Assembly (NCBI GenBank): GCA_964016885.1
Contig: OZ024743.1
Span: 87,234,001 to 87,298,000 of the forward strand
Source: Eledone cirrhosa
Lineage: Eukaryota
DNA length: 64,000 bases
Direction: 5' to 3'
Position numbers and translations under genes: made by a program. Numbering within the stretch: position 1 is the stretch's first letter; each line of letters opens with the position of its first letter. Below, piece after piece: positions 18,575 to 54,675 of this stretch. The notes under the pieces were generated by a model, which did not search any database, was not told the origin of the DNA, and saw only the letters and a list, made by a program, of their open reading frames with translations.

Positions 18575-18848
18575 TAAAATAAAGTTAAATAAAAGTCAAA
18601 TTATTAAAATTTAGCTTCGTTTATTACTGCTATATGACTCCAGTTCCTCAGTGAAATAACAACCCAACAAGGAACTGGGCATATCAGAGTATTGACAATA
18701 TTATACACCTCAACAACATATGTACTTGTCTATACCATACTAATTCAAACTGCCTGAAGAGGTCACAGCCAAAGATGGCTGTCACTGAAATATATATAGC
18801 AGTAATAAACGAAGCTAAATTTTAATCATTTGACTTTTTATTTAACTT

Positions 18849-18855
<7 letters not shown>
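18575..18855 (+). mobile_element. ORF-less fold-back Penelope-like pLTR element
   Basis: inverted arms ~18575-18635 and ~18794-18855; hammerhead motif inside; (TA)n immediately right and ~95 nt to the left. Confidence 0.7.
18749..18803 (+). ncRNA. type I hammerhead ribozyme (minimal, Penelope-type)
   Basis: actgc-CTGAAGA-ggtcacagcc/aaagat/ggctgtcact-GAAA-tatatATA-gcagt: stem I actgc/gcagt, stem II hairpin, AUA triplet. Confidence 0.75.
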
Positions 18856-18895
<40 letters not shown>

Positions 18896-19009
18896 ACACA
18901 TATATTATATATATATATAAACACATGCAAATGGATTTCTGGGAGAGTATGTAAGATAAACGTCTATTAAAATAGTGTATGTGTCAATGTGTGCATATGC
19001 GCATAGTTA

Positions 19010-19097
19010 GTGTGTGTGTGTGTCTGTGTGTGAGTGAATGTATATGCGAGTCTCTCTCTCTCTATATATATATATATACACATATATATATATATAT

Positions 19098-19148
<51 letters not shown>

Positions 19149-19241
19149 TATATACACATATATATATATACACATATATATATATACACATATACATATA
19201 TATACATACATATATATACATATATACATATATATACATAT

Positions 19242-19276
<35 letters not shown>

Positions 19277-19285
19277 CATATATAT

Positions 19286-19320
<35 letters not shown>

Positions 19321-19329
19321 CATATATAT

Positions 19330-19374
<45 letters not shown>

Positions 19375-19377
19375 TAT

Positions 19378-19412
<35 letters not shown>

Positions 19413-19495
19413 CATATATATACACACACACACATATATATATCATCACATATATATATATATACACACACACATATATATACACACACATATAT

Positions 19496-19540
<45 letters not shown>

Positions 19541-19552
19541 TATATATACACA
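19010..19552. repeat. (TA)n/(CA)n compound microsatellite
   Basis: direct inspection. Confidence 0.95.
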
Positions 19553-19899
19553 TGTGTTTATATGGCAGTCTTTTGTCTTGTAAAGCTCAATGTGTTGTTT
19601 TCGTTGGTGGATCTTAATACAAATATGTTTCCTTTGGCTAACATTTGAAGTGGACAATGTTGTGGACACTGTCCACTTCAAATGTTGACTAATGACCAGA
19701 TTTAATCTCAGGATAAAGTATAACAAAGTTAAATAATGTTGGGTGGGGTGGATCTGGGTGTCTTGTTCTTCATTTTTTTTAAGAGCAACAATCAGCTTTT
19801 GACCAGTGGCCAAATGGATTTGGACACTGAGAAATGGCCTGTTAGCAATGGACATTGACTAGTTTAATCTTAAGTATGATTGATGCTCAGTGGATACCA

Positions 19900-20400
19900 G
19901 TAATCATTAGTCATTGACCAGTCAAACCAGCAGTTTGTGACCATTAGTTACAAACAGCTACCATTAATACCGATAGCTACTGGTCAAAAGACTGATGCCC
20001 CCCGTTGGTGACCAGTATGTGGTTCATATTTTCAGTGGTCACCAGATGGTACCACCAATGGTTAGTAGATGGTGCTACAAATAACAAGTCGATGGAATCT
20101 TTAGTGGTCAGTATTACAAGTGACCAAAAGATGATACTCCCAGTAACCAGTAGTGTGATCAATGACTAGTTAATGGGGTACTACCAGTGGTCACTGACAA
20201 AAAGATGGTACTATCAGCGAGCAGTTGATCACCAGTCACCAGAAGATAGTACCACCAGTAGTCACTGACCAATAGATGATACCACCAGTGACCAGTTGAT
20301 GGTACCATCAGTGACCAATAAATGATACCACCAGTGACCAGTCGATGGTGCTACCAGTGACTAGAAGATGGTGCCACCAATGACCAGTCACTGACCAACA
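19900..20400. repeat. degenerate ~21-27 bp tandem repeat (accaccagtgaccagttgatggt) immediately 3' of the NIPA2 stop
   Basis: repeated accagt/gatggt units. Confidence 0.7.
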
Positions 20401-20437
20401 GACATAATAAAAAGTATCAGTGAAATAATTCGGTCAA

Positions 20438-21054
20438 CTAATAGTTGTAATTTATGTCCGTGGAGTGAGATAACATCAAATTCTGGCAATCATCGTGGTT
20501 GATGGAAATCAGTTTATTATCATTGTTCAGATGACCAATGGCTGGAGTGTAATCTACTTTTTTGGAGCTTGGCAAATTGCTGAGGCTGATGTTCATGTCT
20601 TTGAAGGCGTTAAGCAGGAAGATACCAGCGATGATCGTGAAGAAGCCACACATGTTACCAACAATGTCCAGCAGAGCCATGTTGGTCCACTCCTTGAAGA
20701 GAATAAGTGAGGCAACCATTACTGAAGATGTGAAGAGGACATAGTAGATGGGAGTGACCACAGCCGTGTTGAACGTGTCCAGGGATCTGTTGAGGTAGTT
20801 CAACTGAAGCACGATGCAGGTGGCAACCATTATTACCAGTAACCATGGCAACCAGTTCAGCAAGAGGTACAGCTCTCCAGACAGAGTCTGCTTGATCGCT
20901 ACGCCCAGCCCTTTGCAGCCCATCACAGTGAAAGCACCGAGCAGCGAGCAGATTCCGACGTAGAGGAAGACATTGTTGTTACCATACTGAGGTACATAGT
21001 AGATGATGAGGATGGCTGTGATAAACGCTACCAGGGTGATGTAGATGACAAACA
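20438..21054 (-). CDS. NIPA2: NIPA2-like magnesium transporter, coding exon 5 (last)
   Basis: acceptor ttgcag|; VFVIY...YVGICSLLGAFTVMGCKGLG...QLNYLNRSLDTFNTAVVTPIYYV...FKEW; TAG at 20438-20440. Confidence 0.95.
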
Positions 21055-21143
21055 CTGCAAGGAGACAAAGTGAAAAGAAGGAGTAGATAGACAATGTACA
21101 ATTAGTTTTAGTGGTGTATGTGTGTGTGTAAATATATATATAT

Positions 21144-21476
21144 GGAGGCACATGGCTTAGTGGTTAGAGCATTGGCCTTGCAATCGAAAGGTTGTGAGTT
21201 CAATTCTCAGACCGGGTGATGTGTTGTGTCCTTGAGCAAGACACTTTATTTCACATTGCTCCAGTTTACTCAGCTGTAGAAATGAGATGATAGGGACTGG
21301 GGTCCCTATCATTCCACTGCAAAGTGGTCGTGGAGGTGCCACGGCAAAAAAGCACCCAGCACTCACTGTAAATGAGGTTGGTGTTAGGAAGGGCATCCAG
21401 CTAGAATCAGTTCCCGTCCCACCCATGCAAGCAGGGAAAAGCGGACGTAAAATGAAATGATGATGATGAATGATGA
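21144..21476 (+). mobile_element. tRNA-derived CORE-SINE with RTE-derived tail; other copies at 26984-27060 (partial), 27100-27410 (diverged), 29531-29874(-), 52113-52447(-), 55263-55730(-)
   Basis: tRNA-like head tggcttagtggttagagc...gagttcaattc; CORE-like gtgtccttgagcaagacactt...cagtttactcagctgtagaaatg; 3' end shared with the RTE LINEs. Confidence 0.85.
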
Positions 21477-21712
21477 TATATATATATATATAACGAAGGA
21501 AGTGTGATAAGGAACCAGATGGACCATAACGTACCAGAGTACTCAATACTTAGGGTAGTAGAGTGGGTAATAGGAAAATGTTAAACCCCGATGGCAGAGC
21601 TCAAGCCGTTTCGACGGCTATATATGTATACTGTATTTTGAACTGTTTTATATTTACCACCTACCTCTTTCCAGTTTTATATTGTTTTGTAACAAGTCAT
21701 TTGTTTCATATA

Positions 21713-22013: not shown

Positions 22014-24095
22014 ATATTCATTAGTTAAGCAAAACAAGACCACAAATTTTACAAGGAAGACATTATTAAAAGATTGTCAACATATTTTAGTTTGATGTGA
22101 GGAATGTAGAGAATAATAATAATAATAATATTAATAATAATTGTTTCTACTTTAGGCACAAGGCCAGCAATTACCCAGTGCATTACTGGTACTTTATTTT
22201 ATCGACCCCGTAAGGATGAAAGGCAAAGTCAACCTGGGCGGGATTTGAACTCAGACCGTAAAGGGACGTAACTATGCTGGAAAGCAGGGCGTCCGACCCT
22301 CTACCGATACTGCCAATCCAATGTCCGTTTACAATTGTTTCGCTACTCCATATAATATTTCTGGATCTGGTTATGAACAATCCATTTACTACATACCTAA
22401 ATGCCATAACACAGCAATTCACCATAATAAACTTAACACTAGAACTAGAAATACCTTAGCATATAGCCAGATTCGCCGGAATTTTAGCAGTAACAGCACC
22501 TATACAGGGAACTTTAATGGTGGCAGCGGCCTGCTCCCCACTCCAAGTAGCAAACTAAAAATCAACCCTAGAATAGGAATGAGAAATGGGATGACAAATA
22601 ACAAATCCCCAGGTAATAATAACCCTAGGAAGGCTCCTACCAACTCCACTAGAACCCCTAGAAGGAATAGGCCTAGAAATATCACTTGGCTTAACCCCCC
22701 CATTCTCATTTAATCTAGCCACTAATATCCCTAAACGCTTCTTCTCTATCCTATCTAAACATTTCCCACCCAACCATAGATATTACAAACTCTTTAATAA
22801 AAATAACATTAAAATCTCATTCTCCACAACACCTAACCTAGCTAGCCACATCGCATTCAGTAACTATCATAAACTAAGACAGTATAACTCCCACACCGCG
22901 GTACCACCACCCCTATCAAATACACCACGCCACTACACCAATAATTACTCTGGTAGCACACCTCCCCCATCTAATCCTTCTAGCACTGACCAACCGCTTA
23001 GGTTAAACTACCCTACTCTCACTAACCACAGAAGCAACTGCAACTGCCGTTACCCTAATGCATGCCCATTAAATGGACACTGCCTGACACCCAACATAGT
23101 CTATAGGTGCACGGTTAAAACTGCTTCGAATACCAGCTCTTATATCGGGTCTACCTCTAACCCTTTTAAGGTACGCTATAACGCGCACTCTTTTTCCTTC
23201 CGAGACCCTAGCAACAGATGTTCGACATCTCTAGCTAGGCTCATTAAAAACCTTAAATTAAGCAACATTGAACACTCACTAAAATGGGATATTGTAGCTA
23301 GGGCCCAACCGTTCAATGGACGAAGAAAATCTTGTGATCTCTGTATTACCGAAGCATATTACATAACTCTATCACGACCTCTACCGATTAACGATAGAAC
23401 GGAGGTAACCATTAGCTGTCAACATCGAAGGGCTAATTCCTTCGGCAATAGAATATTTGACCCAACATAGTCATCTAGCCCCATTTTTACTTGTAGCTAA
23501 TAAGTTAAATAGCTATAACTAACTTAGATAATTATAAGTTACCTCCCCAACATCGCCTCTCAATTAAAAAATTTAAAAATTAGCACTTAACTATAAACTG
23601 CCCACAATTTCTAATCTCTCGAGGAGTTACTTCCCCTGAAACCACCCTTTAATTAGTAAGGTAAATATGTCCTTTGGCGGCCATCTTGTTACCCATAGGC
23701 AGATCTCATCTCACACAATGCAGCCTCGACAGATGAATACTGCTTGATTATGGCTGACAATTGATACAACCAGGACACCATAGTGAAATACCAATATATG
23801 GAACATTACATTATGTAACATTCTCTCCTTATTTTAATTTATATTCCTTTGAAGTTCCGATGAGCCGCTCTGTTTTTAAATATGTTAATTATTTTCAACT
23901 GAACCAGATCAATAATGATATATAGTCATCTGATCCAGAAATATTATATGGAGTAGCGAAACAATTGTAAACGGACATTATTATTATTATTATTATTCTA
24001 TACATTCCTTACATCAAACTAAAATATGTTGACAATCTTTTAATAATGTCTTCCTTGTGAAATTTGTGGTCTTGTTTTGCTTAACTAATGAATAT
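22014..24095 (+). mobile_element. 5'-truncated Penelope-like element (GIY-YIG end) with inverted pLTR; SINE inserted in the left arm
   Basis: coding remnant 22369-23470 reads GYEQSIYY...NITWLNPP/FSFN...CNCRYPNACPLNGHCL...IVYRC...YIGST...CDLC...CQH; arms 22014-22367 and 23932-24095 are reverse complements. Confidence 0.9.
23854..23972 (+). ncRNA. hammerhead-like motif (U4C variant) with long stem II insert
   Basis: gtt-CCGATGA-gccgctc...gagtagc-GAAA-caattGTA-aac. Confidence 0.55.
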
Positions 24096-24381
24096 TTCCA
24101 GCTCTGCGCGCCTAACTTCTGCATGAACCCAACCACCTAGCTGCTTTCTACTGCATATTGCACATTGAGCACATGCCTTTACGCTTTGGCTTCTAACTAA
24201 TTCACCAATCTTTCCTCTCCTATCTCCATCTCTCTCTTTAAGATTGGTTACTCTTGAACTGTGTATACATATATATATACATATATATGTGTATGTAAAA
24301 GGTAAACAGAAATAACAACACAATCGGTACAGTATATGGAAGGGATATATTAGGTTAACGGTTGGTGTAGCAGGAAGAGGG

Positions 24382-29305: not shown

Positions 29306-29428
29306 TTTTTGTTGTGGCATTCACAGCAGCAACTTCAGTTATACTCATTATATATTATTTATTTTTTATTTATAAATAATATATAATGAGTATAACTGAA
29401 GTTGCTGCTGTGAATGCCACAACAAAAA
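29306..29428. repeat. perfect palindrome, 57-bp arms, 9-nt loop
   Basis: 29306-29362 is the reverse complement of 29372-29428. Confidence 0.9.
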
Positions 29429-30159: not shown

Positions 30160-30183
<24 letters not shown>

Positions 30184-30191
<8 letters not shown>

Positions 30192-30860
30192 TAAAATAAC
30201 AGATTAAAGTTTAAGCAAAGAATCGCTGCTTTCACCCTTAACGGGATCTTCTGAAACTAACAAAGTCAATCTGTAAACGCAGTACTGGATATTTCAAAAA
30301 ACGTTGCAACCGGAGGACTGTAGCGGAGATTCATTCGGTCTCCTAGTTAGAATTTTAGTCTACAACTTCTGCTATACCATTTACGTGGTTTTGTCTTTGC
30401 GTGCTATTGTTCTCCACGCTCCACATATGACTTATTATCTTCGTTTTTTCGTTCATTGCCAGAGAACGTCTCTATGCACCACTTAGAGAACATTAGTCTA
30501 CGACCTCTTTTATACCATGAACGTGGTTCTGTCTTTGCGTGTAATTGTTTTTCACAGCTCCTATTAATGACGTATTATTCGTTTTTTCCCGTTCTTTGCC
30601 AGCGAACGTCACCATGAACCAAAGTATCATCTTCCTGTCTTCCTCCGGTTGCAACGTTTTTTGAAATATCCAGTACTGCGTTTACAGATTGACTTTGTTA
30701 GTTTCAGAAGATCCCGTTAAGGGTGAAAGCAGCGATTCTTTGCTTAAACTTTAATCTGTTATTTTAATAAATATTTGCTCTTCGGTTCTTATATATTTGA
30801 TATATATTTTCCTTATCGAGCCCTCTTTGGATTTTAGTCTTCAATTTTATTATTATTACT
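30184..30860 (+). mobile_element. ORF-less fold-back pLTR element with 134-bp perfect inverted arms
   Basis: 30184-30317 = reverse complement of 30641-30774; internal ~140-bp tandem duplication; hammerhead-like fold at 30700-30750; (TA)n on both sides. Confidence 0.75.
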
Positions 30861-30916
30861 ATATATATATATATACGATATTAAACAAATGGAAACTATA
30901 TTTATAAAACCATATT

Positions 30917-30982
30917 TATTTCATTATACATATTTCGGGGATACCATATTAAAAATATGGCATGCCTTCTTCAGATAAAATA
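30917..30982 (-). ncRNA. type I hammerhead ribozyme in 3' pLTR
   Basis: reverse complement of 34728-34793. Confidence 0.75.
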
Positions 30983-32607
30983 CAATATATAAACAGTTTT
31001 ATAAATAATTTTGATGTACCATAAATATTGAGCAGCCTTTATGTAAGAAGCTGGTTTGGTAGTGAGATGTTTATAAATATTTAGTGTTAAGCACAGTTAA
31101 AAAGAAAGACGGAGAAAAAGAAGAAATGTATGTAAAGAAAAACAGAGAGAAATAGAGAGAGATAGGGGAGAGAGAAATAGTGAGGAGGTGAAAAAAGAGA
31201 GGCAGCTGAGGCAACAGATGAATAATAATAATTCATCATACAAATTGAGAGATTTAGGAGGGAGGGAGTACTGTAATTATTTAGTTATAGTGTTAAGGAC
31301 AGTTGGGGAGGAGACGGAGAGAAATAAAAAATAAAAAATGAAGAGAAAACAGAGAGAGAGAAAGATAGAGGTGGGAGGAAAAAAGAGGTAGACCAAATAA
31401 TAATAATTATATATGGGGAGGTGAGAGAAATAAGAGAGAAACTCGAGAGGCAAAGTTAAAATAACCGATACATAGACTTCATCATATATAAAGAGGGAGG
31501 AGAAGAAAAAGCTATATCTAGAGAGAGGGATGATAGATTTACATCTTTACGTTATGTCCTATCAATTTGAATTATCAATTCATATGAATTGGGTAATATA
31601 ATGTAAATATCAATATTCATGAATGAGACAGATATATAATGTGTGAAAAATAATGACCATATGTTTAGTTTAAAATTCTGAGGTCGATGTACCAAAACTG
31701 AGATAAAACTTCAAAAAATACGGAAATATATAAGTATATACATACACATGCAAATGCACTTTCCGGAAAAGGAAAGAAAGAGAAAAAGAGAAGGTCATCT
31801 TAAGTTCTAGTTGATACTATAGACATACCCATGATCTTACGTGATCAACTCTGTAATTTCTTGTTTCACAGAAAAAAATGTTTTCCCTTGTGTTACAAAA
31901 GATTTTACTATATATATATACATAAAAAAAATATTAATATTCTTGCCCTCACATACATGATTATCATTCATGTATAGAATATTATGCATATCTGTAACAT
32001 ATCCAGAACTATACCCACACATACATATATATATATATATGTATGCACACATATATGTACATGGGCAGATAAAATAAACAGATAAAATAAAATATACTCT
32101 GTAATCATTCCATATGCATATTAATACATATGGCCTTTGTACAGAGACAACCAGATATCAATATATCAGCACAGAGATATCAAAACGTTAAAAATATTTT
32201 CATCACTCCCTAGAGTATCTCGGGCCGTAAAAAACACAGTATGCCCCCCATATCAACCACAGAAATCTACCCTTCCAATTTATCTGACAATATATTACCA
32301 AGTTCATTAGAAGCAATCAGAATCAAAAAGCAAACAAAAAAAACAAAAATTATTCAACAAAACTTATTTAGCAGAAATCATTTAAAGGATTTATGAGACC
32401 CTGTTGTTCTACGGATGCTCTTATATTTAGTATAGAAGTTTATCTAGAGTAAAATTTATTCAATAGATTGGGAGCATCTACATTTTAGGGTAGTTTAATT
32501 ACATCATTAGTATATATTTATGAAGAAGGTTTAAAAGAAAAAGTCGAAGGAATCGAAAGATTTATCGTCAGGTTTCATACATTAATTAAATATCTTAATT
32601 AATTATA

Positions 32608-34343
32608 CTACATTTTAAATTTATATTTATATTTAAACGTTGAGTTCAATCTATGTCTGCAGCAACTGAATAAATTGCTCCTTAAATTAAGGGAATTTTT
32701 GGATTTTAATATAAAGAATATCTCCTCCACACAGAGGTCACATGTCTCAGATGAGGAATTAAAAGGAATCCCTCTTGAGACAATATTCCAAAACATCGAA
32801 TACCCAACGTTATCATGTTTAAGTTGCCAGAGTAAGCCTGATAGTGAAGTTGAAGATTTTTTGTTTGGATCTGTGAAAGAATTCTTATGATTATTGTAGC
32901 GAAGTTTAAATTCTGTCGAGGTGGAACCAACATAGTTAAAAGAATTTAAGTTAGTTTTAACATTACAATTGTATATTATATTTTTAACTAAGCAATTGTT
33001 ATTTAACGGACATTTAGATTTATTTCTACAGTTACAGTTGTTTAATTGAATATTGTTTTGGCTATTATCGGTATTTTGGCTAGGTTTTAGATTCCTATTA
33101 TTTATTCTGTTAATATTTTGTGCTAAATTTTTGGTGGACGAGTAAGTTAATTTTATAGTATGTCTATTAAAAATTGAGTGATATTTATGTGTTCTAGGGA
33201 AGCGTTTGTCAAGAGCATTAAAAAATAGTTTAGCAATGTGGGTTTTAATATTTAGTGAGAAAGGGGGGCAAACCATATTATATTTCTAGTTCTATTTCTT
33301 TTCCGGCTTTTGGAATTATTGTAATGTTTTCTATTATAGTTGTTAAAGTTGTTACCGTAATTAAAATTGTTATTATTTTGGTTAGTTTGCCTATTATTAT
33401 CGATGTACTTAATTTTATCACTATATCCTGCTCTAGCTAACGCTTCATTGTAATACTGCGCTTTTTCGTCGAAAATATTTTTATTAGATAAAATTCCTGA
33501 GATACGTTCTTGAACAGAGTTCACTATAGTATTTTTAACAGATCTGGGGTGATTAGAGTTAAAATTGACATAATTCAAGTTTTCATTTAGTTTGTGAAAT
33601 GGATAGTGAAGACATGTGTTGAGATTTAGTGTTACATCTAGGAAATTGACTATTCTATGGTTATTCTCTATTTCTATTTTTAGATTAAGGTAATTAAAAA
33701 ATTGTATAATTTGTTTTCTTTTTCTATTTAGTTCAGAGTTATTATTTTCAATAAGTAAAAGCATGTCATCACGATATAATCCTCCGGTTACACCAGGTAT
33801 TTTTCTATGCAGCGAATTAATTATAAATAAGCCCACAAGGTCGGTTACCTGAGCTGAGTCAGATGATCCCATAGTAATGTCGAAATTATTATCTTTATCT
33901 GCCCTAGTCCATAGTTGGTTATTAAATTCTATCAATGTTTTCCTTGCCGATAATATAATGTGCATTTCATTGCTAGTTAGGTCTGTATGTTTGAATGCGT
34001 AATTTAATGCCTTATTCAGTAGATTAGGGGTAATAGATGAATAGTAGTTAGCAATATCTAGTTGAATAAATTTATTATTGTTATATTTAATTTCTTTAAA
34101 CCACTCAATAACCTCACCAGTCCCCTTCCATAAGTTTAAGTTAGGTAAATTATGTAAGTTTTTAATTTGCTGTATCACCCTGTCTAGAATGTTTTTGCTA
34201 AGTTTACCGAGGTCAGATTTTGATGGTGCAATCAATCTGACTGGCAAATCATTTTCAAAATTTCTTTTGTGATCTTTCATATTGATCTTGGGTTTCCTAG
34301 GCAAGAAGGGTTGTGTTTTGTTCTCAATGTCCAACTCATGCAT
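32608..34343 (-). pseudogene. Penelope-like RT-GIY-YIG ORF, one frameshift at ~33265
   Basis: LDIANYYSSI, DITMGSSDSAQVTDLVG, GLYRDD, FLDVTL; then CNC..CPL..CL, NIIY...YVGST, CDLC, CCRH. Confidence 0.9.
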
Positions 34344-34727
34344 TATACAAGATGCCTCAACATTCTCTTCATTTTTTATTTTTTATTTCTCTCCGTCTCC
34401 TCCCCAACTGTCCTTAACACTATAACTAAATAATTACAGTACTCCCTCCCTCCTAAATCTCTCAATTTGTATGATGAATTATTATTATTCATCTGTTGCC
34501 TCAGCTGCCTCTCTTTTTTCACCTCCTCACTATTTCTCTCTCCCCTATCTCTCTCTATTTCTCTCTGTTTTTCTTTACATACATTTCTTCTTTTTCTCCG
34601 TCTTTCTTTTTAACTGTGCTTAACACTAAATATTTATAAACATCTCACTACCAAACCAGCTTCTTACATAAAGGCTGCTCAATATTTATGGTACGTCAAA
34701 ATTATTTATAAAACTGTTTATATATTG

Positions 34728-34793
34728 TATTTTATCTGAAGAAGGCATGCCATATTTTTAATATGGTATCCCCGAAATATGTATAATGAAATA
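34728..34793 (+). ncRNA. type I hammerhead ribozyme in inverted 5' pLTR
   Basis: tattttat-CTGAAGA-aggcatgccatatt/ttt/aatatggtatcccc-GAAA-tatgtATA-atgaaata; 8-bp stem I. Confidence 0.75.
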
Positions 34794-34907
34794 AATATGG
34801 TTTTATAAATATAGTTTCCATTTGTTTAATATCGTATATCTACTCCAAAACTTGTCGAGTGCTTTATATCAGTTATAAAATATTTACTTGTTGTAACCCA
34901 ACATCTA

Positions 34908-37900
34908 TTTTGTTAGAGATGCCTACTGGCTGTAGTAGGTTTTACTATGTATTTAGGTAAAGCGGGTCTTCTCTGTTACTGAGTACCGCCAAAGGTCTCG
35001 GTCCAGTGACATTGTCTTGGAGAGGTGTAAGTGTGTGAGGTCGGAGTTTATCAGCTCGTCCCAGGTTTTTCTAGGTCTGCCTATTCCGTGGCTACCGTCT
35101 ATCTTTATTGCCCTGCACTTTGTTATACAGCTATCGACTTTCATGCGCATCACGTGTCCATACCAACGTAGCCTTCTCTCGAGTAAACAACATCTGATCC
35201 CTCTTATTTCTAATTTTTTCCTTAGTTCGTTTATGCTTTGCCGTTCACGTATATTACTATTGCACATCCAGCGGAGCATGCAAGCTTCGTTCCTCTCTAG
35301 TCTGCGTATATCCTCTGCACACAATGCCCAGGTCTCACTGCCATGCAACATTGCTGTTCGTATGCAGGCATCGTACAACCTGCCTTTCATTTTCAGGGAG
35401 AACCCTTTAGCAGCTAATAGTGGTATAAGCTCTCTGAACTTTTTCCAACCAGTTCTGACTCTAGCTACTGTACTTTCAGAGCACCCTCCCCCACTGCTGA
35501 TTTTATCACCCAGGTAACGGAAGCTGTCCACTATTTCTATAGAACCCTCTGCGCAATTGAAAGAGCTAGTATTTTGTGGGCACTTGCTGCTACTTATTGC
35601 ACCAGAGCACCGGCCACATGTAAAATCTGTGTTCTTAGTTAGCTTACCTGTGATCCCACTACCTCTTTTATGCACCCATACTTTGCATTTAGGACATAAA
35701 ATGGAGTTTCTACCTACGCCTTTCCTACACACCGAGCACGACCATTTCCCAGAAGGGACCGCCGCCTTATTTTCTTTCCTACAAACTAGAACTTTAGTCT
35801 TAGCCAGGTTAATTTTAAGTCCTTTTGATTCTAGGCCGTGCTTCCATGTTTGGAATTTCTTCTCTAGCTTGGCCATTGATTCCGCTATGAGTGTCAGGTC
35901 GTCTGCGTATAGGAGTTCCCATGGGCAGCCGGTCTTGAACTCCTCTGTTATAGCCTGAAGGGCAATAATAAATAGTAGGGGGCTGAGAACAGAGCCCTGA
36001 TGGACGCCAACTTTTACGCTAAACTCTTCACTATATTCGTTGTTAATTCTAACCTTGCTGTCTGTTTCTTTATACATGGCTTGTATAGCTCTCACAAGCC
36101 ATTCGTCAACGCCTAGTTTTCTAAGAGCCCACCAGATAATGGAGCGGGGGACTCTGTCGAAGGCTTTCTCCAAGTCGACAAAAGCTAAGTAGAGGGGTTT
36201 ACCTTTAGCTAGGTACTTCTCCTGTAGTTGTCGTACAATGAAAAGAGCGTCTGTGGTACTTTTGCCTGACACAAACCCCGAACTGCATTTCATCTAGGTC
36301 AATTCTCTCTCTGATTAGTTGTGCTATTACTTTTTCCGTGACCTTCATGACCTGGTCGATTAATTTAATGCCTCTATAGTTACTCCTATCTAGGGCGTCT
36401 CCTTTACCCTTATAACAGTTAACGATGATGCTGCTATGCCAGTCCTTCGGAACAACCCCATTCTGTACGACTTGGTTAACTATGCGGGTGACCATGGTGT
36501 GTCCCACCGTGCCAGATGCCTTCAGCATCTCAGCAACTATTTCCGAAGGCCCAGCCGCCTTACCCGTCTTCATATCCTTGATTACCTTACTTATTATACT
36601 CCCCTCGACTAACACTGCTGGTCCCTCTATTGGGTCAATATGGGGGAGACTGTCTTTCTCCCATTTATTCTCCTCATTTAGTAGCCTTTCATAGTGACAC
36701 TTCCAAGCTACCTTCTTATCAGCGTCGGTGATGGCAAGTATGCCATCATCGTTAAGTACACACTTCTCCCCGACAATATCACGGTTTTCCTTGACGCATT
36801 GCCTAGCAATCCTGAACACCTCACGTTTCTGGTCCTCGCGTTGTAGAACATGCTTGAACTTTCTTTCCTCAGCTTCCCTTCTTGCTAAGTACACTTGTCT
36901 CCTAGCTTCCCTCCTGGCCACTTGATAGTCTTCTCTACTTCCCCCATCCCACCATACTTTCCAAGCCTGCTTTTTGGCCTTAATTGACCCCTCCACCTTA
37001 CTGTTCCACCACCATGTTACTCTCCTCCTGCCTACAGGCCTGCTCCAGCCACAGACTTCGTCTGTCGCCATCAGCAGGTTTGCTTTCAGAAATTCCCACT
37101 GTCCCTCTATATTGTCCGACTCTAAATGTTCTTCCTTACTGTCGAAAGCATCAAGTAATATGCTTTGAAATTTATTTCTGGCTGTGGGGTCCTTTAGCTT
37201 CCATATTTTTCTCCTGAGGATAGTCCTCTTCTGCTGTCGAGTACGTCTCGTCCTGACTATGAGGTCGCTAATTATCAGTCTATGTTGGGAGGTGCATTCT
37301 TCATGGGGGAGGGATTTAGTGTTTACAACAGACACTCTGTCACGTCTTCTGGTAAGGATATAATCTACCTGGCTTGTGTGTTCCCTGGATCTATAGGTGA
37401 TCAGGTGATTGTCACGTTTTTTGAAGTTAGTGTTACAGATAGTTAGGTTATTTGCATCACAGAATTCCAGGATTCTGGAGCCTTCCTCATTTCTAGTACC
37501 AAACCCATAGCCTCCATGGATTTCGTCGTAGCCGTCACAATGTTGTCCAACGTGACCATTTAGGTCGCCTGCAATAATTATATAGTCACTGTCGGATATT
37601 TGGGAGGTAGTTAGCATCAGTGTCTCATAGAATCTATCTTTTATAGTGCCGGGCAGTCCGGATTGGGGTGCGTACGCAGATATTACTGTCACCGTAGTTC
37701 TATTGAGGACAAGTCGTATTTTAATTATTCTGTCGTTCACTCTATTTACGTCTATTATCTTATCTGCCCACTTTTCTGCTACCATGATTCCTACTCCACC
37801 CAGCCCATCGTCGTTTCCCACCCAGAAAAGCTTATAACATCGTTTATTACCCTCAATGAATCTAGCAGACCCACCCCTCCACCTGGTCTCTTGAATACAA

Positions 37901-38004
37901 CAAACATCGACCTCCTTACGTTCAAGCATTTCTACAACCTCGTTAGCGCGACCCTTTAGGGTGCCTACATTTATGGTACCAACTCTGAAGTTTTGGATTT
38001 GCAT
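34908..38004 (-). mobile_element. near-full-length RTE LINE (APE + RT + PHD), one frameshift, 3' tail missing
   Basis: ORFs 36205..38004 (APE: CIQETRW, GDLNGH, SQH) and 34953..36293 (DLEKAFD, QGSVLSP, YADD); extra C at ~36277. Confidence 0.96.
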
Positions 38005-38080
38005 ATATATATATATATATAAAAGACGTAAAATAAGAAAATTTTAAAAATTAAAAATTAACTTACTTACTAAAATTTTC

Positions 38081-38162
38081 ACTCCAACTAATTAGTTTCT
38101 GTAATGGGATAAAGATAGTTACGCAATGTAACCATCGAGAATTCATTACGTCATCAGGGAGT
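38081..38162 (-). ncRNA. type I hammerhead ribozyme (left arm, sense to the NIPA2 pre-mRNA)
   Basis: reverse complement of 38665-38745 with one extra base in the stem II insert. Confidence 0.75.
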
Positions 38163-38664
38163 CTATTCTCAGCTAAGTCTCCAGGCAATGCGTGGACACT
38201 AGGGACTCATATAAAAATAATAATTCGGTGGATGGAACAGCTAGCGGGGATTGAATTCCATAGCACTGAAAAAGTTCACTGTCTCTGGTCAAATGGCAGA
38301 TTCTAAAGAATCAATCACGTGACACTGAGGCTAGTCAGAAGGAGTGGGATGGTATAATGACAAAAGCCTACTACTACTACAATGAGTATTTATCTCCAAA
38401 TTATTTATTTGTTGAGCAAACTTGCCAAATCCACTACTAATTCGTTGTAGTAGTAGTAGGCTTTTGTCATTATACCATCCCACTCCTTCTGACTAGCCTC
38501 AGTGTCACGTGATTGATTCTTTAGAATCTGCCATTTGACCAGAGACAGTGAACTTTTTCAGTGCTATGGAATTCAGTCCCCGCTAGCTATTCCATCCACC
38601 GAATTATTATTTTTATATGAGTTCCTAGTGTCCGCGCATTGCCTGGAGACTTAGCTGAGAATAG

Positions 38665-38745
38665 ACTCCCTGATGACGTAATGAATTCTCGATGGTTACA
38701 TTGCGTAACTATCTTTATCCATTACAGAAACTAATTAGTTGGAGT
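38665..38745 (+). ncRNA. type I hammerhead ribozyme (right arm)
   Basis: actcc-CTGATGA-cgtaatg...cattaca-GAAA-ctaattaGTT-ggagt; palindromic stem III. Confidence 0.8.
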
Positions 38746-38913
38746 GAAAATTTTAGTAAGTTAATTTTTAATTTTTAAAATTTTCTTATTTTACGTCTTT
38801 CATATAATTGTTCTGCATCCTCCTGCATTGAACCACCTAGGTACTATGACATAACTTATGTATTTGTTAGCATTAGTGTACATCTGTACGCATATGTTGG
38901 TAAATATACTAAT

Positions 38914-38964
<51 letters not shown>

Positions 38965-44455: not shown

Positions 44456-44501
<46 letters not shown>

Positions 44502-44526
44502 CATATATATATATAAATATATACAT

Positions 44527-47500
44527 ATCATCATCATCATCATCATCATCAGGTTTAGCGTCCTTGTTCCACGCTTGCATGGGTTTGGACGGGGGTTTTC
44601 CCACTTGAGGCAAGAGTGGTTGTCTTGCTCGCATAGGACTGTCTGGCGGGTTTTCTACAGTTGGATGCCCTTCCTAACACCAACCACATTTACAGTGTGG
44701 GGCTGGGAGGTTCTTACCGTGTTGCCTACACGGCCACATTACAGCGTGGACTGTCTGGCGGGTTTTCTACAGCTGGATGCCCTTCCTAACACCAACCACA
44801 TTTACAGTGTGGGGCTGGGAGGTTTTTACCGTGTTGCCTACACGGCCACATTTACGTGGACTGTGTGTTTTTTGTCGTGACACCTACACGATCTCATTTG
44901 TTTCGGCCTGGATGTTGTGGGACCAACATAACTGTACATTGAAAGGGGCGGTGTGGATGGGGTGGAGGTGGTGGAACGGGGGGGTGTTTTGATAGAGATG
45001 CCTACTGACTGTAGTAGGTTTTTACTTTGTATTTAGGTAAGGCGGGTCTTTTCTATTACTGAGTACCGCCAAAGGTCTCGGTCCAGTGACATTGTCTTGG
45101 AGAGGTGTAAGCGTGTGAGGTCGGAATTTATCAGCTCGTCCCATGTTTTTCTGGGTCTGCCTACTCCGTGGCTACCGTCTATCTTTATTGCCCTGCACTT
45201 TGTTATACAGCTGTCGTCTTTCATGCGCATCACGTGACCGTACCAACGTAGCCTTCTCTCGAGTAAACAACATCTGATCCCTCTTATTTCTAATTTTTTC
45301 CTTAGTTCGTTTATGCTTTGCCGTTCACGTATATTACTATTGCACATCCAGCGGAGCATGCAAGCTTCGTTCCTCTCTAGTCTGCGTATATCCTCTGCAC
45401 ACAATGCCCAGGTCTCACTGCCATGCAGCATTGCTGTTCGTATGCAGGCATCGTATAACCTGCCTTTCATTTTTAGGGAGAACCCTCTAGCGGCTAATAG
45501 TGGTATAAGCTCTCTGAACTTTTTCCATCCAGTTCTGACTCTAGCTACTGTACTTTCAGAGCACCCTCCCCCACTGCTGATTTTGTCACCCAGGTAACGG
45601 AAGCTGTCCACTATTTCTATAGAACCCTCTGCGCAGTTGAAGGAGCTAGTATTTTGTGGGCACTTGCTGCTACTTATTGCACCAGAGCACCGGCCACATG
45701 TAAAATCTATGTTCTTAGTTAGCTTACCTGTGATCCCACTACATCTTTTATGCACCCATACTTTGCATTTGGGACATAAAATGGAGTTTCTACCTACGCC
45801 TTTCCTACACACTGAGCATGGCCATTTCCCAGATGGGACTGCCGCCATATTTTCTTTCCTACAAACTAGAACTTTAGTCTTAGCCAGGTTAATTTTAAGG
45901 CCTTTTGATTCTAGGCCGTGCTTCCATGTTTGGAATTTCTTCTCTAGTTCGGTCATTGATTCAGCTATGAGCGTTAGATCATCTGCGTATAGGAGTTCCC
46001 ATGGGCAGCCGGTCTTGAACTCCTCTGTTATAGCCTGAAGGGCAATAATAAATAGTAGGGGGCTAAAAACAGAGCCCTTATGGACACCAACTTTTACACT
46101 AAACTCTTCACTATATTCGTTGTTAATTCTAACCTTACTGACTGTTTCTTTATACATGGCTTGTATAGCTCTCACAAGCCATTCGTCAACACCTAGTTTT
46201 CTAAGAGACCACCAGATAATGGAACGGGGGACTCTGTCGAAGGCTTTCTCCAAGTCGACAAAAGCTAAGTAGAGGGGTTTACCTTTAGCTAGGTACTTCT
46301 CCTGTAGTTGTCGTACAATGAAAAGAGCGTCTGTGGTACTTTTGCCTGACACAAATCCGAACTGCATTTCATCTAGATCAATTCTCTCTCTGATTAGTTG
46401 CGCTATTACTTTTTCCGTGACCTTCATGACCTGGTCGATTAATTTAATGCCTCTATAGTTACTCCTATCTAGGGCATCTCCTTTTCCCTTATAGCAGTTA
46501 ACGATGATGCTGCTACGCCAGTCCTTCGGAACAACCCCATTCTGTACGACTTGGTTAACTATCCGGGTGACCATGGTGTGTCCCACCGAACCAGATGCCT
46601 TCAGCATCTCAGCAACTATTTCCGAAGGACCAGCCGCCTTACCCGTCTTCATATCTTTGATTGCCTTGCTTATTGTACTACCCTGGACTAACACTGCTGG
46701 TCCCTCTATTGGGTCGATGTGGGGGAGACTGTCTTTCTCCCATTTGTTCTCATTTAGAAGCCTTTCGTAGTGACACTTCCAAGCTACCTTCTTATCAGCG
46801 TCGGTGATGGCAAGTATGCCATCATCGTTAAGCACACACTTCTCCCTGACAATATCACGGTTTTCCTTGACACATTGCCTGGCAATCCTGAACACCTCAC
46901 GTTTTTGGTCCTCACGTTGTAGAACATGCTTGAACTTTCTTTCCTCTGCTTCCCTTCTTGCTAAGTACACTTGTCTCCTAGCTTCCCTCCTGGCCACCTG
47001 ATAGTCTTCTCTACTTCCCCCATCCCGCCATGCTTTCCAAGCCTGCTTTTTGGCCTTAATTGACTCCTCCACCTTACTGTTCCACCACCATGTTACTCTC
47101 CTCCTACCTACAGGCCTGCTCCAGCCACAGACTTCGTCTGCCGCCGTCAGCAGGTTTGCTCTCAGGAATTCCCACTGTTCCTCTATATTATACGACTCTA
47201 ATTGCTCTTCCTTACTGTCGAAAGCGTCAAGTAATATGCTTTGAAATTTATTTCTGGCTATGGGGTCCTTTAGCTTCCATATTTTTCTCCTGAGGATAGT
47301 CCTCTTCCGCTGTCTAGTACGTCTCGTCCTGACTATGAGGTCGCTAATTATCAGTCTATGTTGGGAGGTGAATTCTTCATGGGGGAGGGATTTAGTGTTA
47401 ACAACAGACACTCTGTCACGTCTTCTGGTAAGGATATAATCTACCTGGCTTGTGTGTTCCCCCGATCTATAGGTGATCAAGTGATTGTCTCGTTTTTTGA

Positions 47501-48029
47501 AGTTAGTGTTACAGATAGTTAAGTTATTTGCGTCGCAGAATTCCAGGATTCTGGAGCCTTCCTCATTTCTAGTACCGAACCCATAGCCTCCATGGATTCC
47601 GTCATAGCCGTCACAATGCTGTCCAACGTGACCATTTAGGTCGCCTGCAATAACTATATAGTCACTGTCGGTTATTTGGGAGGTAGCGAGCATCAGTGTC
47701 TCATAGAATCTGTCTTTTATAGCACCGGGCAGTCCGGATTGTGGTGCGTACGCAGATATTACTGTCACCGTAGTTTTATTGAGGACAAGTCTTATTTTAA
47801 TTATTCTGTCATTCACTCTATTTACGTCTATTATCTTATCTGCCCACTTTTTTGCTACCATGATTCCTACCCCACCCAACCCATTGTCATTTCCCACCCA
47901 GAAAAGCTTATAGCATCATTCTTTACCCACGATGAATCTAGCCGACCCTCCCCTCCACCTGGTCTCTTGAATACAACAAACATCGACCTCCTTACGTTCA
48001 AGCATTTCTACAACCTCGTTAGAGCGACC
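44527..48029 (-). mobile_element. near-full-length RTE LINE with (GAT)n tail
   Basis: 954-aa open frame plus complete 3'UTR; 5' end truncated and frameshifted near 47920. Confidence 0.97.
45033..47897 (-). CDS. RTE ORF: APE endonuclease, reverse transcriptase, inserted PHD finger
   Basis: uninterrupted 954 aa; YADD; CSVC..CPKC..HKRC..CGRC; true start lost. Confidence 0.85.
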   Translation of the reverse strand: MGNDNGLGGVGIMVAKKWADKIIDVNRVNDRIIKIRLVLNKTTVTVISAYAPQSGLPGAIKDRFYETLMLATSQITDSDYIVIAGDLNGHVGQHCDGYDGIHGGYGFGTRNEEGSRILEFCDANNLTICNTNFKKRDNHLITYRSGEHTSQVDYILTRRRDRVSVVNTKSLPHEEFTSQHRLIISDLIVRTRRTRQRKRTILRRKIWKLKDPIARNKFQSILLDAFDSKEEQLESYNIEEQWEFLRANLLTAADEVCGWSRPVGRRRVTWWWNSKVEESIKAKKQAWKAWRDGGSREDYQVARREARRQVYLARREAEERKFKHVLQREDQKREVFRIARQCVKENRDIVREKCVLNDDGILAITDADKKVAWKCHYERLLNENKWEKDSLPHIDPIEGPAVLVQGSTISKAIKDMKTGKAAGPSEIVAEMLKASGSVGHTMVTRIVNQVVQNGVVPKDWRSSIIVNCYKGKGDALDRSNYRGIKLIDQVMKVTEKVIAQLIRERIDLDEMQFGFVSGKSTTDALFIVRQLQEKYLAKGKPLYLAFVDLEKAFDRVPRSIIWWSLRKLGVDEWLVRAIQAMYKETVSKVRINNEYSEEFSVKVGVHKGSVFSPLLFIIALQAITEEFKTGCPWELLYADDLTLIAESMTELEKKFQTWKHGLESKGLKINLAKTKVLVCRKENMAAVPSGKWPCSVCRKGVGRNSILCPKCKVWVHKRCSGITGKLTKNIDFTCGRCSGAISSSKCPQNTSSFNCAEGSIEIVDSFRYLGDKISSGGGCSESTVARVRTGWKKFRELIPLLAARGFSLKMKGRLYDACIRTAMLHGSETWALCAEDIRRLERNEACMLRWMCNSNIRERQSINELRKKLEIRGIRCCLLERRLRWYGHVMRMKDDSCITKCRAIKIDGSHGVGRPRKTWDELINSDLTRLHLSKTMSLDRDLWRYSVIEKTRLT

Positions 48030-51128: not shown

Positions 51129-51131
51129 TAC

Positions 51132-51166
<35 letters not shown>

Positions 51167-51271
51167 TATATATACATATATACATATACATATATATATA
51201 TATATACATATATATGTATATATATACATATACATATCCATATATATACATATACATACATATATATACAT

Positions 51272-51317
<46 letters not shown>

Positions 51318-51649
51318 ATATATATATGTATGCTAGCGTGGAAGATAGACGTTAAACGATGATGATGATGATCACACGTGCTTTTCGTCATTTACAGATT
51401 TGCATTTAGTGTGTGAACACAGACAGTTAAATCTTTGCCAATGATCTGGGATTTGACGATTGTGATTTACTGATCAATGGTGAAATACATTTCTTTATTT
51501 AATGAAATATATACAAAGGAGATTAATCATTATTGCAAGGTATCTATATTTGAAGTTCTCGTTAAATTTTAATTTATCTATGTAACTATGTGTGTTTACA
51601 CTCTTTACAAATTATCCCTTGTGATTGTTTGATGTGTTTATTTTAGACA

Positions 51650-51930
51650 TTTTTTCACGCTCAGAGTTGCTGAAGCATGGAACAAACTGCCTGCGTCAGT
51701 TGTTAGCTGCCGAGACACTGCATCCTTTAAGACACTCATGCTTTCCGAAATACGCCAAAACTACACCTGATGTACCCTTTCCATACACATGCACACGTGT
51801 GTATCATGACTCATGCACTGTTCATTTTCCTGACGTTTGTACATTACCCTATGTACTATACATACACTTTTTGATTAGTTGTAGTGCACCTGAGCACTGT
51901 ACACAATATTTCATTATTATTATTATTATA
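51650..51930 (+). mobile_element. CR1-clade LINE 3' end with (ATT)n tail
   Basis: RVAEAWNKLPASVVSC..SFK; shared 3'UTR. Confidence 0.7.
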
Positions 51931-52639
51931 TCAATCGATTTTTAATTGAATGCTATATATATATATCAGTAGTAACACAACAGTTAGTTCACCATACTGA
52001 GAACAATTGTTTCACCTTAGCGGATTCGTAGCGGTCCGTAACTCTATGTATATATTATAACTCTATATATATATTATAATAAGGAACGAGGATTCAGTGT
52101 TGCATCATATCATATCATCATCATCATCATCATTTTTATGTCCGCTTTTCCCTGCTTGCAAGGGTGAGATGGGAACTGATTCTGGCTTGATTTCTACAGC
52201 TGGATGCCCTTCCTAACACCAACCTCATTTACAGTGAGTGCTGGGTGCTTTTTTGCCATGGCACCTCCACGACCACTTTGCAGTGGAATGATAGGGACCC
52301 CAGTCCCTATCATCTCATTTCTACAGCTGAGTAAACTGGAGCGATGTGAAATAAAGTGTCTTACTCAAGGAAACAACACATCACCCAGTCTGAGAATTGA
52401 ACTCACAACCTTTCTATTGCAAGGCCAACGCTCTAACCACTAAGCCATCTAATAACATATTACATAATCAGCTTGAGGCAAGATCTATTAGGGATCAAAC
52501 CTGACTCTGTAATCGAAAGTTCTTCAGATATGTTTGCTGTTTAAACCCATGCTAGTGTGGAAGATGGACGTTAAACGAAGATGATGATGATGTTTGGTAT
52601 ATGAGTTCATCTCCGAGATATAAATATACATAAAATAAT

Positions 52640-53530
52640 AATGCTTTCTTTATTAACCACAAGGGTTTAAACAAAGTAGACATTAAGGACAGTACAGGAC
52701 AATACAGGACGGTTCAAATGGGCATTTCTGCGTGTAAAAAACAAAAACAGAGGATGTAACAAAAAATAACAATGAAAAATTCCCCAATAGGGGGGAGACT
52801 TCCGAGGGCCATCGTGGAGAAAGCCCATTAGAAAAAGCTACGGTGACCCTGACCACCAGGGCAAGTGCCCTCTTCCAGTTTTCCACTTTCAATTTACAGG
52901 TATATATATACTCAGAGTTTATGCTGGGAAGAGAGCATTTCCCTCTCTACCCTGATTTTCCTTTTAATCAGGGCATCACCAAAGAGGTAAGTGCTCGTCT
53001 TCAGCCCTTTCAAACGTGTCCACCATACTATCTCTTTCGCCATGGCCACCAGACAGATAAAAACTGCCTGCCCTTCCCGGCTAAAGGAAGAGGGCGGGGC
53101 AATCCTCACGATGGACTCAGCTGATAGCCGGATCCGTTCTACACATGACAGTAGGTGTTCGACATAAACCCACAAGTCAGCAATGCTCGGACACTGGACG
53201 AGTGCATGCAGGACGGTTTCGTCGCTCTGCGAGCATCTCGGACATGCCCGACTGACGGCACCTCCATGCCTGTAGAGTTTATCCCGAAATGGCAAAGCTC
53301 CTCGGTAGCACTGCCAGGCCAGGGATTTCTGGAAATTGTCCATAGGCCCCAGCCCGAAAGTTCTTCCGAAGAGATTGGCTAGTTGATTTTCGTCGAGGCC
53401 TAGAGTTTCCCCAAGTACGTCGTCGCTCTTCCCTTCCACTAATCCTCTATAGAACGCCAAGGTGGAGTTTCCACCGATCACATTGCCCGACTGGTCGAGG
53501 GCCGTGAGTGCCTGAAGACATTCCAGTCTC
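52640..53530 (-). mobile_element. L1/Tx1-clade LINE 3' fragment
   Basis: zf-RVT-like W..YRGALP...CPRC....ETVLHALVQC; minus-strand AATAAA near 52650. Confidence 0.8.
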
Positions 53531-54128
53531 CATAAAATAATAATAATAATAAAAAGGATGAGGTGTTGCCTTTCCATGGTGTTCCAGAAAAGCACTCCAC
53601 TAAGTTAGGGGCTAGTAGTTTAGTGATTGTAATGTCCAGTTACTGTAGGCTCACCAAAGTGAACACTCGATATGTAGTTTCCAGTAGGTATAATGGTACT
53701 GTTCTAAGCTGAGTGTAAGAATTGTTTCTACTTTTTGGCACAAGGCCAGCAATTATCCCAGTATATTACTGGTACTTTATTTTATCGACCCCGTAAGGAT
53801 GAAAGGTAAAGTTAACCTCGGCAGGATTTGAAATCAGTCCGTAAAGGGATGTAACTGTGCTGCAAAGCATGGCGTCCGACCCTCTACCGATACGAGTGTA
53901 ATAATAATATAAAATAACACCTTGTCCTTTTTATTATTAGTAGACCATGAAAAACATGGGCGGAGGCGGTGAGAGCAGACCTCAGATTGATGAAACTCAC
54001 CGAGGAGATGATGAAGGACCGTGACAGGTGGAGAGATGCTGAATAGGACCCGTTCAACCCTTGCAAGCAGGGAAAAGCGGACGTAAAATGATGATGATGA
54101 TGATGATTAACTGGATGTTACAATATAC

Positions 54129-54186
<58 letters not shown>

Positions 54187-54192
<6 letters not shown>

Positions 54193-54671
54193 AATGAATA
54201 ATAACAGGGAGACATCATAAAAAGGTAATTTATTCCATGTATTTTTCCACGGTGGTTATACAGCCTAGTTATGCTATGTGCAAATTTGTAACTATTTGCA
54301 AAACTCAATTATCAAATGCTGTTACCACTGTTTCCTCAAAGCAGAATGGTTAAAATGTTAACCATTCTGCTCTGAGGAAACAGTGGTAACAGCATTTGAT
54401 AATTGAGTTTTGCAAATAGTTACAAATTTGCACATAGCATAACTAGGCTGTATAACCACCGTGGAAACATTTGTAAGCACACGGAATAAATTACCTTTTT
54501 ATGATCTCTACCTGTTATTATTCATTCTTTATCTACACTCCGGAATACAGAAGGATCAGAAACTATTCTTCCATAACTCGTTGACTAACCCCTCACCGTA
54601 CGTCAACTCTATCCAGTGTTGTAATTAACTATTACTGCATTCAGGATAATCCTAAGCATTTCTTGCATAAC

Positions 54672-54675
<4 letters not shown>
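54187..54675 (+). mobile_element. ORF-less fold-back element: ~170-bp arms, 4-nt loop, hammerhead in right arm
   Basis: 54187-54353 vs 54358-54532 reverse complements; (TA)n on both sides. Confidence 0.8.
54368..54479 (+). ncRNA. type I hammerhead ribozyme with ~85-nt stem II region
   Basis: tgct-CTGAGGA-aacagtggt...accaccgtg-GAAA-catttGTA-agca. Confidence 0.7.

Follow-up and report, generated by a model that had tools for sequence, protein, structure and literature searches.

Six back-to-back Penelope-like insertions in (TA)n tracts of the Eledone cirrhosa genome with a fixed pairing of arm ends, probably made by two reverse transcriptions from one cut

A 64,000-nucleotide (nt) stretch of the Eledone cirrhosa genome (assembly GCA_964016885.1, contig OZ024743.1, positions 87,234,001 to 87,298,000), referred to here as the window, contains six elements with inverted arms, which were numbered E1 to E6 in window order. 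The window has a GC content of 37.7% and many (TA)n tracts, and the host assembly is 3.0 Gb in size. The original prediction, made from the letters alone, had described six inverted-repeat elements of one layout, unrelated in sequence and linked to Penelope-like elements (PLEs). All six have inverted arms and a hammerhead motif, with a tail on one side and ends in (TA)n (Table 1), and there is almost no DNA similarity between the families. The predicted coordinates omitted the tails of E1 (on the left inverted arm), E2, and E5. The tail measures at least 90 nt in E1 (left arm), 175 nt in E2, 85 nt in E3, 81 nt in the E4 family, 114 nt in E5, and 119–139 nt in E6; the E4 copy in the window lacks the final 20 nt of the family tail and the (TA)n past it. 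In the following, site A is the short end of one arm, and site B is the tail end of the other arm.

Table 1. Positions of the six elements and their parts in the window (ORF, open reading frame; RT, reverse transcriptase; UTR, untranslated region; LINE, long interspersed nuclear element)
Feature	Position	Strand	Remarks
E1 inverted arms	18575–18635/18794–18855		97% identity
E1 tail-bearing arm	18480–18635	−	site B end at left; tail 18480–18574; adjoins degenerate TA tract
E1 short-ended arm	18632–18855	+	site A 18855; begins at family 5′ hotspot; 3′ end of protein-coding PLE family
E1 hammerhead motif	18749–18803	+	core at 18754; predicted cut after 18798
E2 inverted arms	22014–22130/23979–24095		97% identity
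E2 short-ended arm	22014–22367	−	site A at left; broken by unrelated repeat at ~22131–22319
E2 tail-bearing arm	22371–24270	+	endonuclease-domain ORF 22595–23470, 3′ UTR, site A 24095, tail 24096–24270
E2 hammerhead	23857 (core)	+	core CCGAUGA; 94-nt stem II
E3 inverted arms	30184–30317/30641–30774		100% identity
E3 short-ended arm	30188–30317	−	hammerhead copy, core at 30253; abuts (TA)n 30160–30187
E3 tail-bearing arm	30318–30859	+	3′ end of 3.3-kb PLE with 709-residue ORF (L163); site A 30774, tail to 30859
E3 hammerhead	30705 (core)	+	core CAGAAGA; in tail-bearing arm
(TA)8 tract	30860–30875	.	common to the tail end of E3 and the site A end of E4
E4 inverted arms	30868–31347/34363–34842		99.6% identity
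E4 short-ended arm (the long one)	30868–34362	−	3′ UTR; hammerhead core at 30974
E4 ORFs	33252–34382 (RT); 32608–33285 (endonuclease)	−	different frames
E4 tail-bearing arm (the shorter)	34363–34903	+	hammerhead core at 34736; site A 34842; LINE 3′ end next
E5 self-palindromic region	38016–38806
E5 short-ended arm of retrozyme unit	38021–38385	−	hammerhead copy at 38157; abuts (TA)n 38003–38020
E5 tail-bearing arm	38387–38929	+	one 534-bp ORF-less tandem unit; hammerhead core 38670, site A 38806
E5 tail	38807–38929	+	ends in (CT)n, then (TA)n 38930–38963
E6 self-palindromic region	54184–54535
E6 short-ended arm	54189–54361	−	abuts (TA)n 54139–54188
E6 tail-bearing arm	54355–54674	+	3′ end of protein-coding PLE family; site A 54535, tail to 54674
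E6 hammerhead	54372 (core)	+	85-nt stem II
(TA)n beyond E6 tail	54675–54708

A first look at the genome returned 1096 candidate copies of E1, 2774 of E2, 4044 of E3, 1664 of E4, 3206 of E5, and 2481 of E6, of which 40 were scored per search. Overlapping loci were merged, and four segmental duplicates (L054, L057, L097, and L111) were left out before counting. For E1, a 25-nt subfamily word has 1447 exact matches genome-wide (a control word has none), and a sample free of score bias was obtained by taking the first 100 exact matches in position order on contig C1, which correspond to 75 insertions (the ordered sample). Target-site duplications are unreadable within (TA)n.

In all six families, the outer ends of the arms are fixed, and the inner, fold-back ends vary between copies. 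Among 156 calls of back-to-back junctions, 129 joined an arm ending at A to an arm ending at B, none joined A to A, and 26 had a damaged end. The lone apparent B+B junction extends across a whole element and then finishes at an A end. Hairpin-shaped queries account for 43 of the 129 calls, which carry little weight, and queries consisting mostly of one arm account for the other 86. The ordered E1 sample gave the same result, with A+B pairing in all 39 two-armed insertions with intact ends and a damaged end in another 5. A TA tract is found at 146/155 A ends and 141/186 B ends, against a background of 13% at positions chosen at random in these loci, so that the enrichment of (TA)n at the termini that the original prediction had proposed to look for is there; 22 of the misses at B come from E4 ends, beyond which the TA tract begins another 20 nt along.

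Either arm can be the longer one. In the sets from mostly one-arm queries, A was longer in 35 junctions, B in 45, and neither in 6; by hand count, the corresponding numbers in the ordered sample were 13, 5, and 20, with one unresolved. The A arm is the longer in the E1 and E4 copies of the window. Also by hand count, five B arms of the ordered sample consist of tail sequence only and have no overlap with the A arm. The 129 junctions comprise 52 with microhomology of at least 2 nt (a class that BLAST extension inflates), 36 blunt joints, 35 with 2–80 extra bases, and 6 with larger gaps.

The two arms of an insertion also share sequence variants. Minor alleles were common to both arms within an insertion in 13/13 cases for E2, 56/92 for E4, 20/25 for E5, and 115/169 for E6, and the values between insertions were 11, 19, 12, and 16%, respectively. 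At site −277 of E1, the arms agree in 25/26 insertions (p = 1.5e-6). The idea that the E1 arms derive from different terminal repeats of one source was not supported.

The A+B pairing, the occurrence of either arm as the longer one, and the common variants fit two reverse transcriptions primed from the two strands of one cut and do not fit a simple fold-back. We consider, with a probability of about three in four, that E1 to E6 are insertions of six Penelope-like families into (TA)n, each made of two 5′-truncated copies placed back to back, and that the hairpin is likely built anew each time by two reverse transcription events from one cut. It is fairly probable that the two strands of the cut prime two cDNAs on one template, at A and at B, which are then joined. 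The endonuclease would cut both strands of a (TA)n tract, and each 3′-hydroxyl would prime a cDNA on the same RNA, or on RNAs of the same source copy, with A as the start of one cDNA and B as the start of the other. Both cDNAs would stop independently, and short inverted microhomology, in many cases at a palindrome, would serve to join them. Such double priming would account both for the inverted repeat and for the presence of a tail on one side only. A PLE protein from a lizard is reported to cut and extend both target strands in vitro (Frangieh et al. 2024, PMC11167929), to start at two sites within the RNA, between which the tail lies, and to be a predicted dimer.

Several observations weigh against this interpretation. 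Two arms are not obligatory, because 31/75 insertions of the ordered sample are single-armed or unresolved. Equal reach of the arms, often at a palindrome, is seen in 20 of its 39 two-armed insertions, and fold-back priming predicts this as well. In the first E1 set, 2/16 minor alleles were common to both arms, one insertion is discordant at −277, and 74/96 private E1 variants occur in one arm only, as expected if they arose after insertion. Gene conversion between the arms could be another source of shared variants. Most family samples are the 40 best-scoring matches per search, which favors young copies, and the evidence comes from a single genome assembly.

One alternative is self-priming, in which a strand turns back at a short palindrome and serves as its own template, as proposed for rotifer Penelope elements (PMC3846280). 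The microhomology at 52/129 junctions, the variants shared between arms, and 8/75 insertions of the ordered E1 sample that join exactly at an 8-nt palindrome all agree with it. However, a strand started at B can give only a second arm of shorter reach, so that the tail-bearing arm should always reach furthest. The A arm is the longer in 35/86 and 13/39 insertions, and the five B arms that do not overlap the A arm do not fit either; the constant stop at A is left unexplained. Self-priming is thereby refuted as the sole route, and we regard it as an unlikely origin of the inverted arm, although it could be the source of part of the equal-reach class.

E1, E3, and E6 are 5′-truncated 3′ ends of protein-coding PLE families, like E2 and E4. 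For E3, the upstream DNA is common to 21/25 loci, and in a parent copy (L163), a partial-tandem terminal repeat is directly followed by a 709-residue RT-endonuclease ORF and then by the E3 end. Endonuclease-coding DNA lies in line within 1.5 kb upstream of E1 in 3/30 loci, and two loci (L104 and L266) together give a whole element. Endonuclease-coding DNA lies in line upstream of E6 in 15/30 loci. The original prediction had left a choice for its ORF-less units between truncation and independently mobile hairpins moved by Penelope proteins; truncation applies to E1, E3, and E6, and a non-autonomous partner is present only in E5. For these three families, we found truncated ends of full-length elements with variable inversion points, which the original prediction had named as the sign of ordinary truncation.

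The families of E1 to E4 and E6 encode a protein of RT plus GIY-YIG type with Hydra-clade motifs. RWK is present in E1 and E6, and RWR is present in E4 and E3 (L162). DKT replaces DKG in E1, E3, E4, and E6; the E2 copy that was examined lacks the RWK/DKT region. The CxCX5C linker, a GIY-YIG-like VY..YIG motif, and CxH occur in all five coding families, and CxxC occurs in four (the E6 copy is unmatched). This set is diagnostic of the Hydra clade, to which the five families would belong as read from motifs and architecture. The Pfam evidence is weak and counts on the opposite side: among six PLE proteins searched, GIY-YIG matches were sub-threshold and limited to two, and there was no RT match. 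The PLE assignment therefore relies on motifs and architecture. Protein homologues number 493 at 38–56% identity, with uninformative names. Insertion into (TA)n and possession of hammerheads are traits that Craig et al. 2021 (PMC8557442) give for the Hydra clade. The predicted Penelope link and (TA)n targeting hold, and we have high confidence in the classification of E1 to E6.

Two observations concern individual coding families. In the 3′ UTR of E2, 8/25 tail-bearing arms begin ~550–600 nt from the end, around window positions 23680–23700, a count biased by query length; the word there presumably resembles a YY1 site. A 5.5-kb tandem amplification (L156–L157; contig C1, 52916500–52935500) combines an E6 end with an unrelated RT, which we take to have a restriction-like endonuclease-type tail.

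E5 is different from the coding families. It is an ORF-less 534-bp repeat, mostly AT, arranged head to tail, every unit of which contains a type I hammerhead, and the longest ATG-initiated ORF in a doubled unit has 38 codons. A unit began right after another unit's end in 28/30 loci and after an inverted arm in the other two, and a PLE ORF in line upstream was found in 0/30 loci. Head-to-tail junctions, from one to seven each, occur in 35/37 insertions. The mobile unit in E5 is thus the tandem 534-bp unit and not the hairpin. Judged from these sequence features, E5 is a non-LTR (LTR, long terminal repeat) retrozyme by the published definition (PMC7229834; bioRxiv 10.64898/2026.07.22.740005). 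Like animal retrozymes, it is non-coding, AT-rich, and found beside PLEs, with head-to-tail units that each have a type I hammerhead. Its length is above the 150–450 bp that Cervera and de la Pena 2020 (PMC7229834) give for non-LTR retrozymes of animals and within the 51–972 bp given more recently (Li, Clavereau, Pollet 2026, bioRxiv 10.64898/2026.07.22.740005).

Mobilization of animal retrozymes by PLEs is still presented as a hypothesis in these two sources, on the basis of co-occurrence, similarity, and phylogeny. E5 goes beyond the retrozymes as described there in having the full PLE footprint, namely two fixed 3′ ends, an inverted arm, and a TA target. It is likely to be a non-coding ribozyme-motif repeat that borrows PLE enzymes, and its RNA would be handled in trans by a Hydra-type protein. 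A partner protein was not found among the fetched loci, which counts against such borrowing; the partner search yielded a 10-nt and an 8-nt word common to the E5 and E2 tails, in the same order, and nothing more. It is very unlikely that E5 is instead a lone terminal repeat that multiplied in place to form satellite DNA, a route suggested for such repeats (bioRxiv 10.64898/2026.07.22.740005), or that it was moved by LINEs, even though LINEs with an RT are abundant in the window and the missing partner would suit either origin. The 37 insertions are dispersed, with zero to seven junctions and differing 5′ ends, and they share with the coding families two fixed 3′ ends lying in TA tracts and an inverted second arm. 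A 311-bp tandem family has the same footprint.

This second retrozyme family was met in a random stretch (L430:436–4653; contig C3, 280008000–280014000), where a 311-bp hammerhead unit is repeated 12.8 times with 99.7% likeness. It has an inverted arm of 225 bp; its ends are separated by 25 nt, and (TA)n flanks it left and right. The tails of E1, E4, and E6 have short common words just past site A, which, like those of E2 and E5, are possible protein-binding signals. E1 and E5 tails that end in CT (window 38921–38929; L081, L082, L093, and L042) often have a variable (CT)n run before the (TA)n, as if the RT stuttered at the start site of the tail.

The original prediction had also offered independently mobile hairpin mini-elements, and it suggested BLAST searches for hairpins that recur with identical junctions. 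Such recurrence was not found for E2 to E6. In E1, the 8/75 insertions joined at the palindrome do recur at a hotspot, but on both haplotypes, as they carry both −277 alleles. The hotspot is a palindromic site within 9 nt of which 55/99 E1 arms begin, and it explains the recurring identical E1 junctions. CCAAT words, known as a promoter element, lie ~60 and 190 nt upstream of it, and a transcript start at the hotspot is plausible from this sequence context; microhomology with the TA targets is an alternative. The pile-up of E1 ends would then be run-off from the transcript 5′ end, and, less firmly, most E1 hairpins would be dead products of one generation. The hammerhead cut was considered as the template 5′ end and set aside except as a hint. 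In E5, 15/27 query-bearing arms end at most 67 nt downstream of the predicted cut and one ends in the 65 nt upstream (hand count; p = 2.6e-4), a hint confounded by the 83–93% AT content of the downstream stretch, given that two other AT-rich stretches also collect ends. In E1, 0/16 short partner arms end between the predicted cut and site A.

It is highly improbable that the ORF-less hairpins are mini-elements copied whole: although the window E1 junction is exact in 4 other loci of 25 obtained with the hairpin query, another exact junction is common to the palindromic class, and E6 hairpins of similar size are common, the junctions differ between almost all E2 to E6 copies, the five identical window-type E1 junctions lie on five haplotypes and are found in 0/75 ordered insertions of the same subfamily, the palindromic class has both −277 alleles, and ORF-bearing parents exist, so that no family fits.

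A descriptor of the type I hammerhead gave seven matches in the 64 kb, all within E1, E2, E4, E5, and E6; 100 dinucleotide-shuffled versions of the sequence averaged 0.04. Because it was written after the elements had been seen, the shuffle test shows non-randomness and not activity. A looser descriptor, in which a 3-bp stem II is allowed, gave nine matches in the window with E3 gained on both strands, and its false positives average 0.67 per 400 kb. The predicted motif was thus found in each element, including the variant base at position 4 in two of them (C in E2 and A in E3). In an Rfam cmscan of the window, the hammerhead family was absent among the best 150 of 236 matches, which were all microRNA matches driven by microsatellites and hairpins. 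Among 65 E6 arms, 19 positions are variable, and the core is spared except for N7 and the base after A9. The core is also kept in an E5 tandem subfamily of 81% identity, in which a double change in stem II converts U-A to C-G. Folding in isolation recovered stems I and II for E1 and a partial fold for the other elements. With A at position 4 and a 3-bp stem II, E3 is the most doubtful of the predicted self-cleavers.

The hammerhead density of the window, called remarkable in the original prediction, is ordinary for this genome; the total of the genome is not. In 40 evenly spaced 10-kb stretches, 56 motifs were found, or 9.0 per 64 kb, the same as the nine of the window, and four random stretches hold at least nine motifs in 22% of resamplings. 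The extrapolated number genome-wide is 420,000 (bootstrap 250,000–610,000), from many families. For comparison, 126,247 motifs are reported for the axolotl (PMC7229834). Published hammerhead counts for octopus genomes were not found in the literature searched, and the terms retrozyme, ribozyme, and Hydra are all absent from the text of PMC13282606. More than 12 further hammerhead families with differing loop III palindromes were seen in loci L390–L429 and in the flanks of other loci.

Between E1 and E2, the window contains an exon of a NIPA-type magnesium transporter (20438–21163, minus strand; Pfam PF05653, E = 1e-53). Long LINE ORFs with endonuclease, RT, and PHD finger lie at 34953–38043 and 45033–47915 (minus strand), and LINE remnants occur as well. 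The first of these LINEs is situated between E4 and E5, and the E4 tail ends short beside it. Next to the TA tract of E6 lies another small hairpin, the seventh, which is imperfect and extended on one side (54716–54870); it has 1965 candidates genome-wide, the inspected copies lie between TA-rich flanks, and it is likely another PLE-type stub. A near-perfect 123-nt hairpin beside a TA tract (29306–29428) was rejected, as it has no close-copy family elsewhere.

The elements themselves are of known kinds, and the Hydra family lists in published supplements could already hold these families. The parts worth following are the A+B rule and the footprint of the retrozymes. The origin of the inverted repeats and tails of PLEs is named as an open problem (PMC8557442), and thousands of young insertions that obey a countable rule, A with B, either arm longer and the same template, separate double priming from self-priming. 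Two retrozyme families with a PLE footprint bear on the hypothesis of mobilization by PLEs. With odds slightly better than even, a pair of proteins holds one RNA at two fixed starts and copies it from both strands, and the same machine spreads the retrozymes and has left ~400,000 hammerhead motifs. Strict A+B pairing with either arm longer, or double priming by PLEs, was not found in the literature searched; a model of this kind may be contained in Arkhipova 2006 or in Evgen'ev and Arkhipova 2005.

In twin priming of LINE-1, the second primer takes an internal position that varies, and there is hardly any overlap between the two pieces. In contrast, both starts are fixed here, and an overlap of hundreds of bases is usual. 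Twin priming is described as the use of both target strands to prime cDNA on one RNA, with joining of the products into an inversion (PMC2837659).

The likeness to the Hydra clade as described in PMC8557442 extends to RWK/RWR, DKT, the CxCX5C linker, CxxC, CxH, an ORF of about 700 residues, hammerheads, (TA)n targets, an inverted 5′-truncated copy, and a tail at either end. Tails of 30–40 nt, elements below 3 kb, and few families are given there, as compared with tails of 81–175 nt, elements of 3.3–4.2 kb, and thousands of copies per family here; the long stem II inserts and the hammerhead variants at position 4 are further differences. The hammerheads resemble the minimal ones with palindromic helix III that Cervera and de la Pena 2014 (PMC4209133) describe for metazoan PLEs in being type I, in the loop III that is palindromic in E1, E2, and E5 and near-palindromic in E4 and E6, and in the unpaired base after A9. 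They are unlike them in that E3 has a monomeric stem III, a stem II of 3 bp, and an A as its position-4 base and that stem II has inserts of 85–94 nt in E2 and E6. Opposite-strand hammerhead pairs 100–700 bp apart were already read as truncated PLEs in that work. Penelope systems with pseudo-long terminal repeats (PMC3846280; PMC11167929) have in common with E1 to E6 the head-to-head inverted copy, the optional tail, AT-rich targets, and two internal starts. The inversion is explained by self-priming in Arkhipova et al. 2013 (PMC3846280), whereas double priming is favored here. In PMC11167929, as far as the sections drawn on here extend, the two start sites are not tied to the two arms, whereas in E1 to E6 sites A and B are the arm ends.

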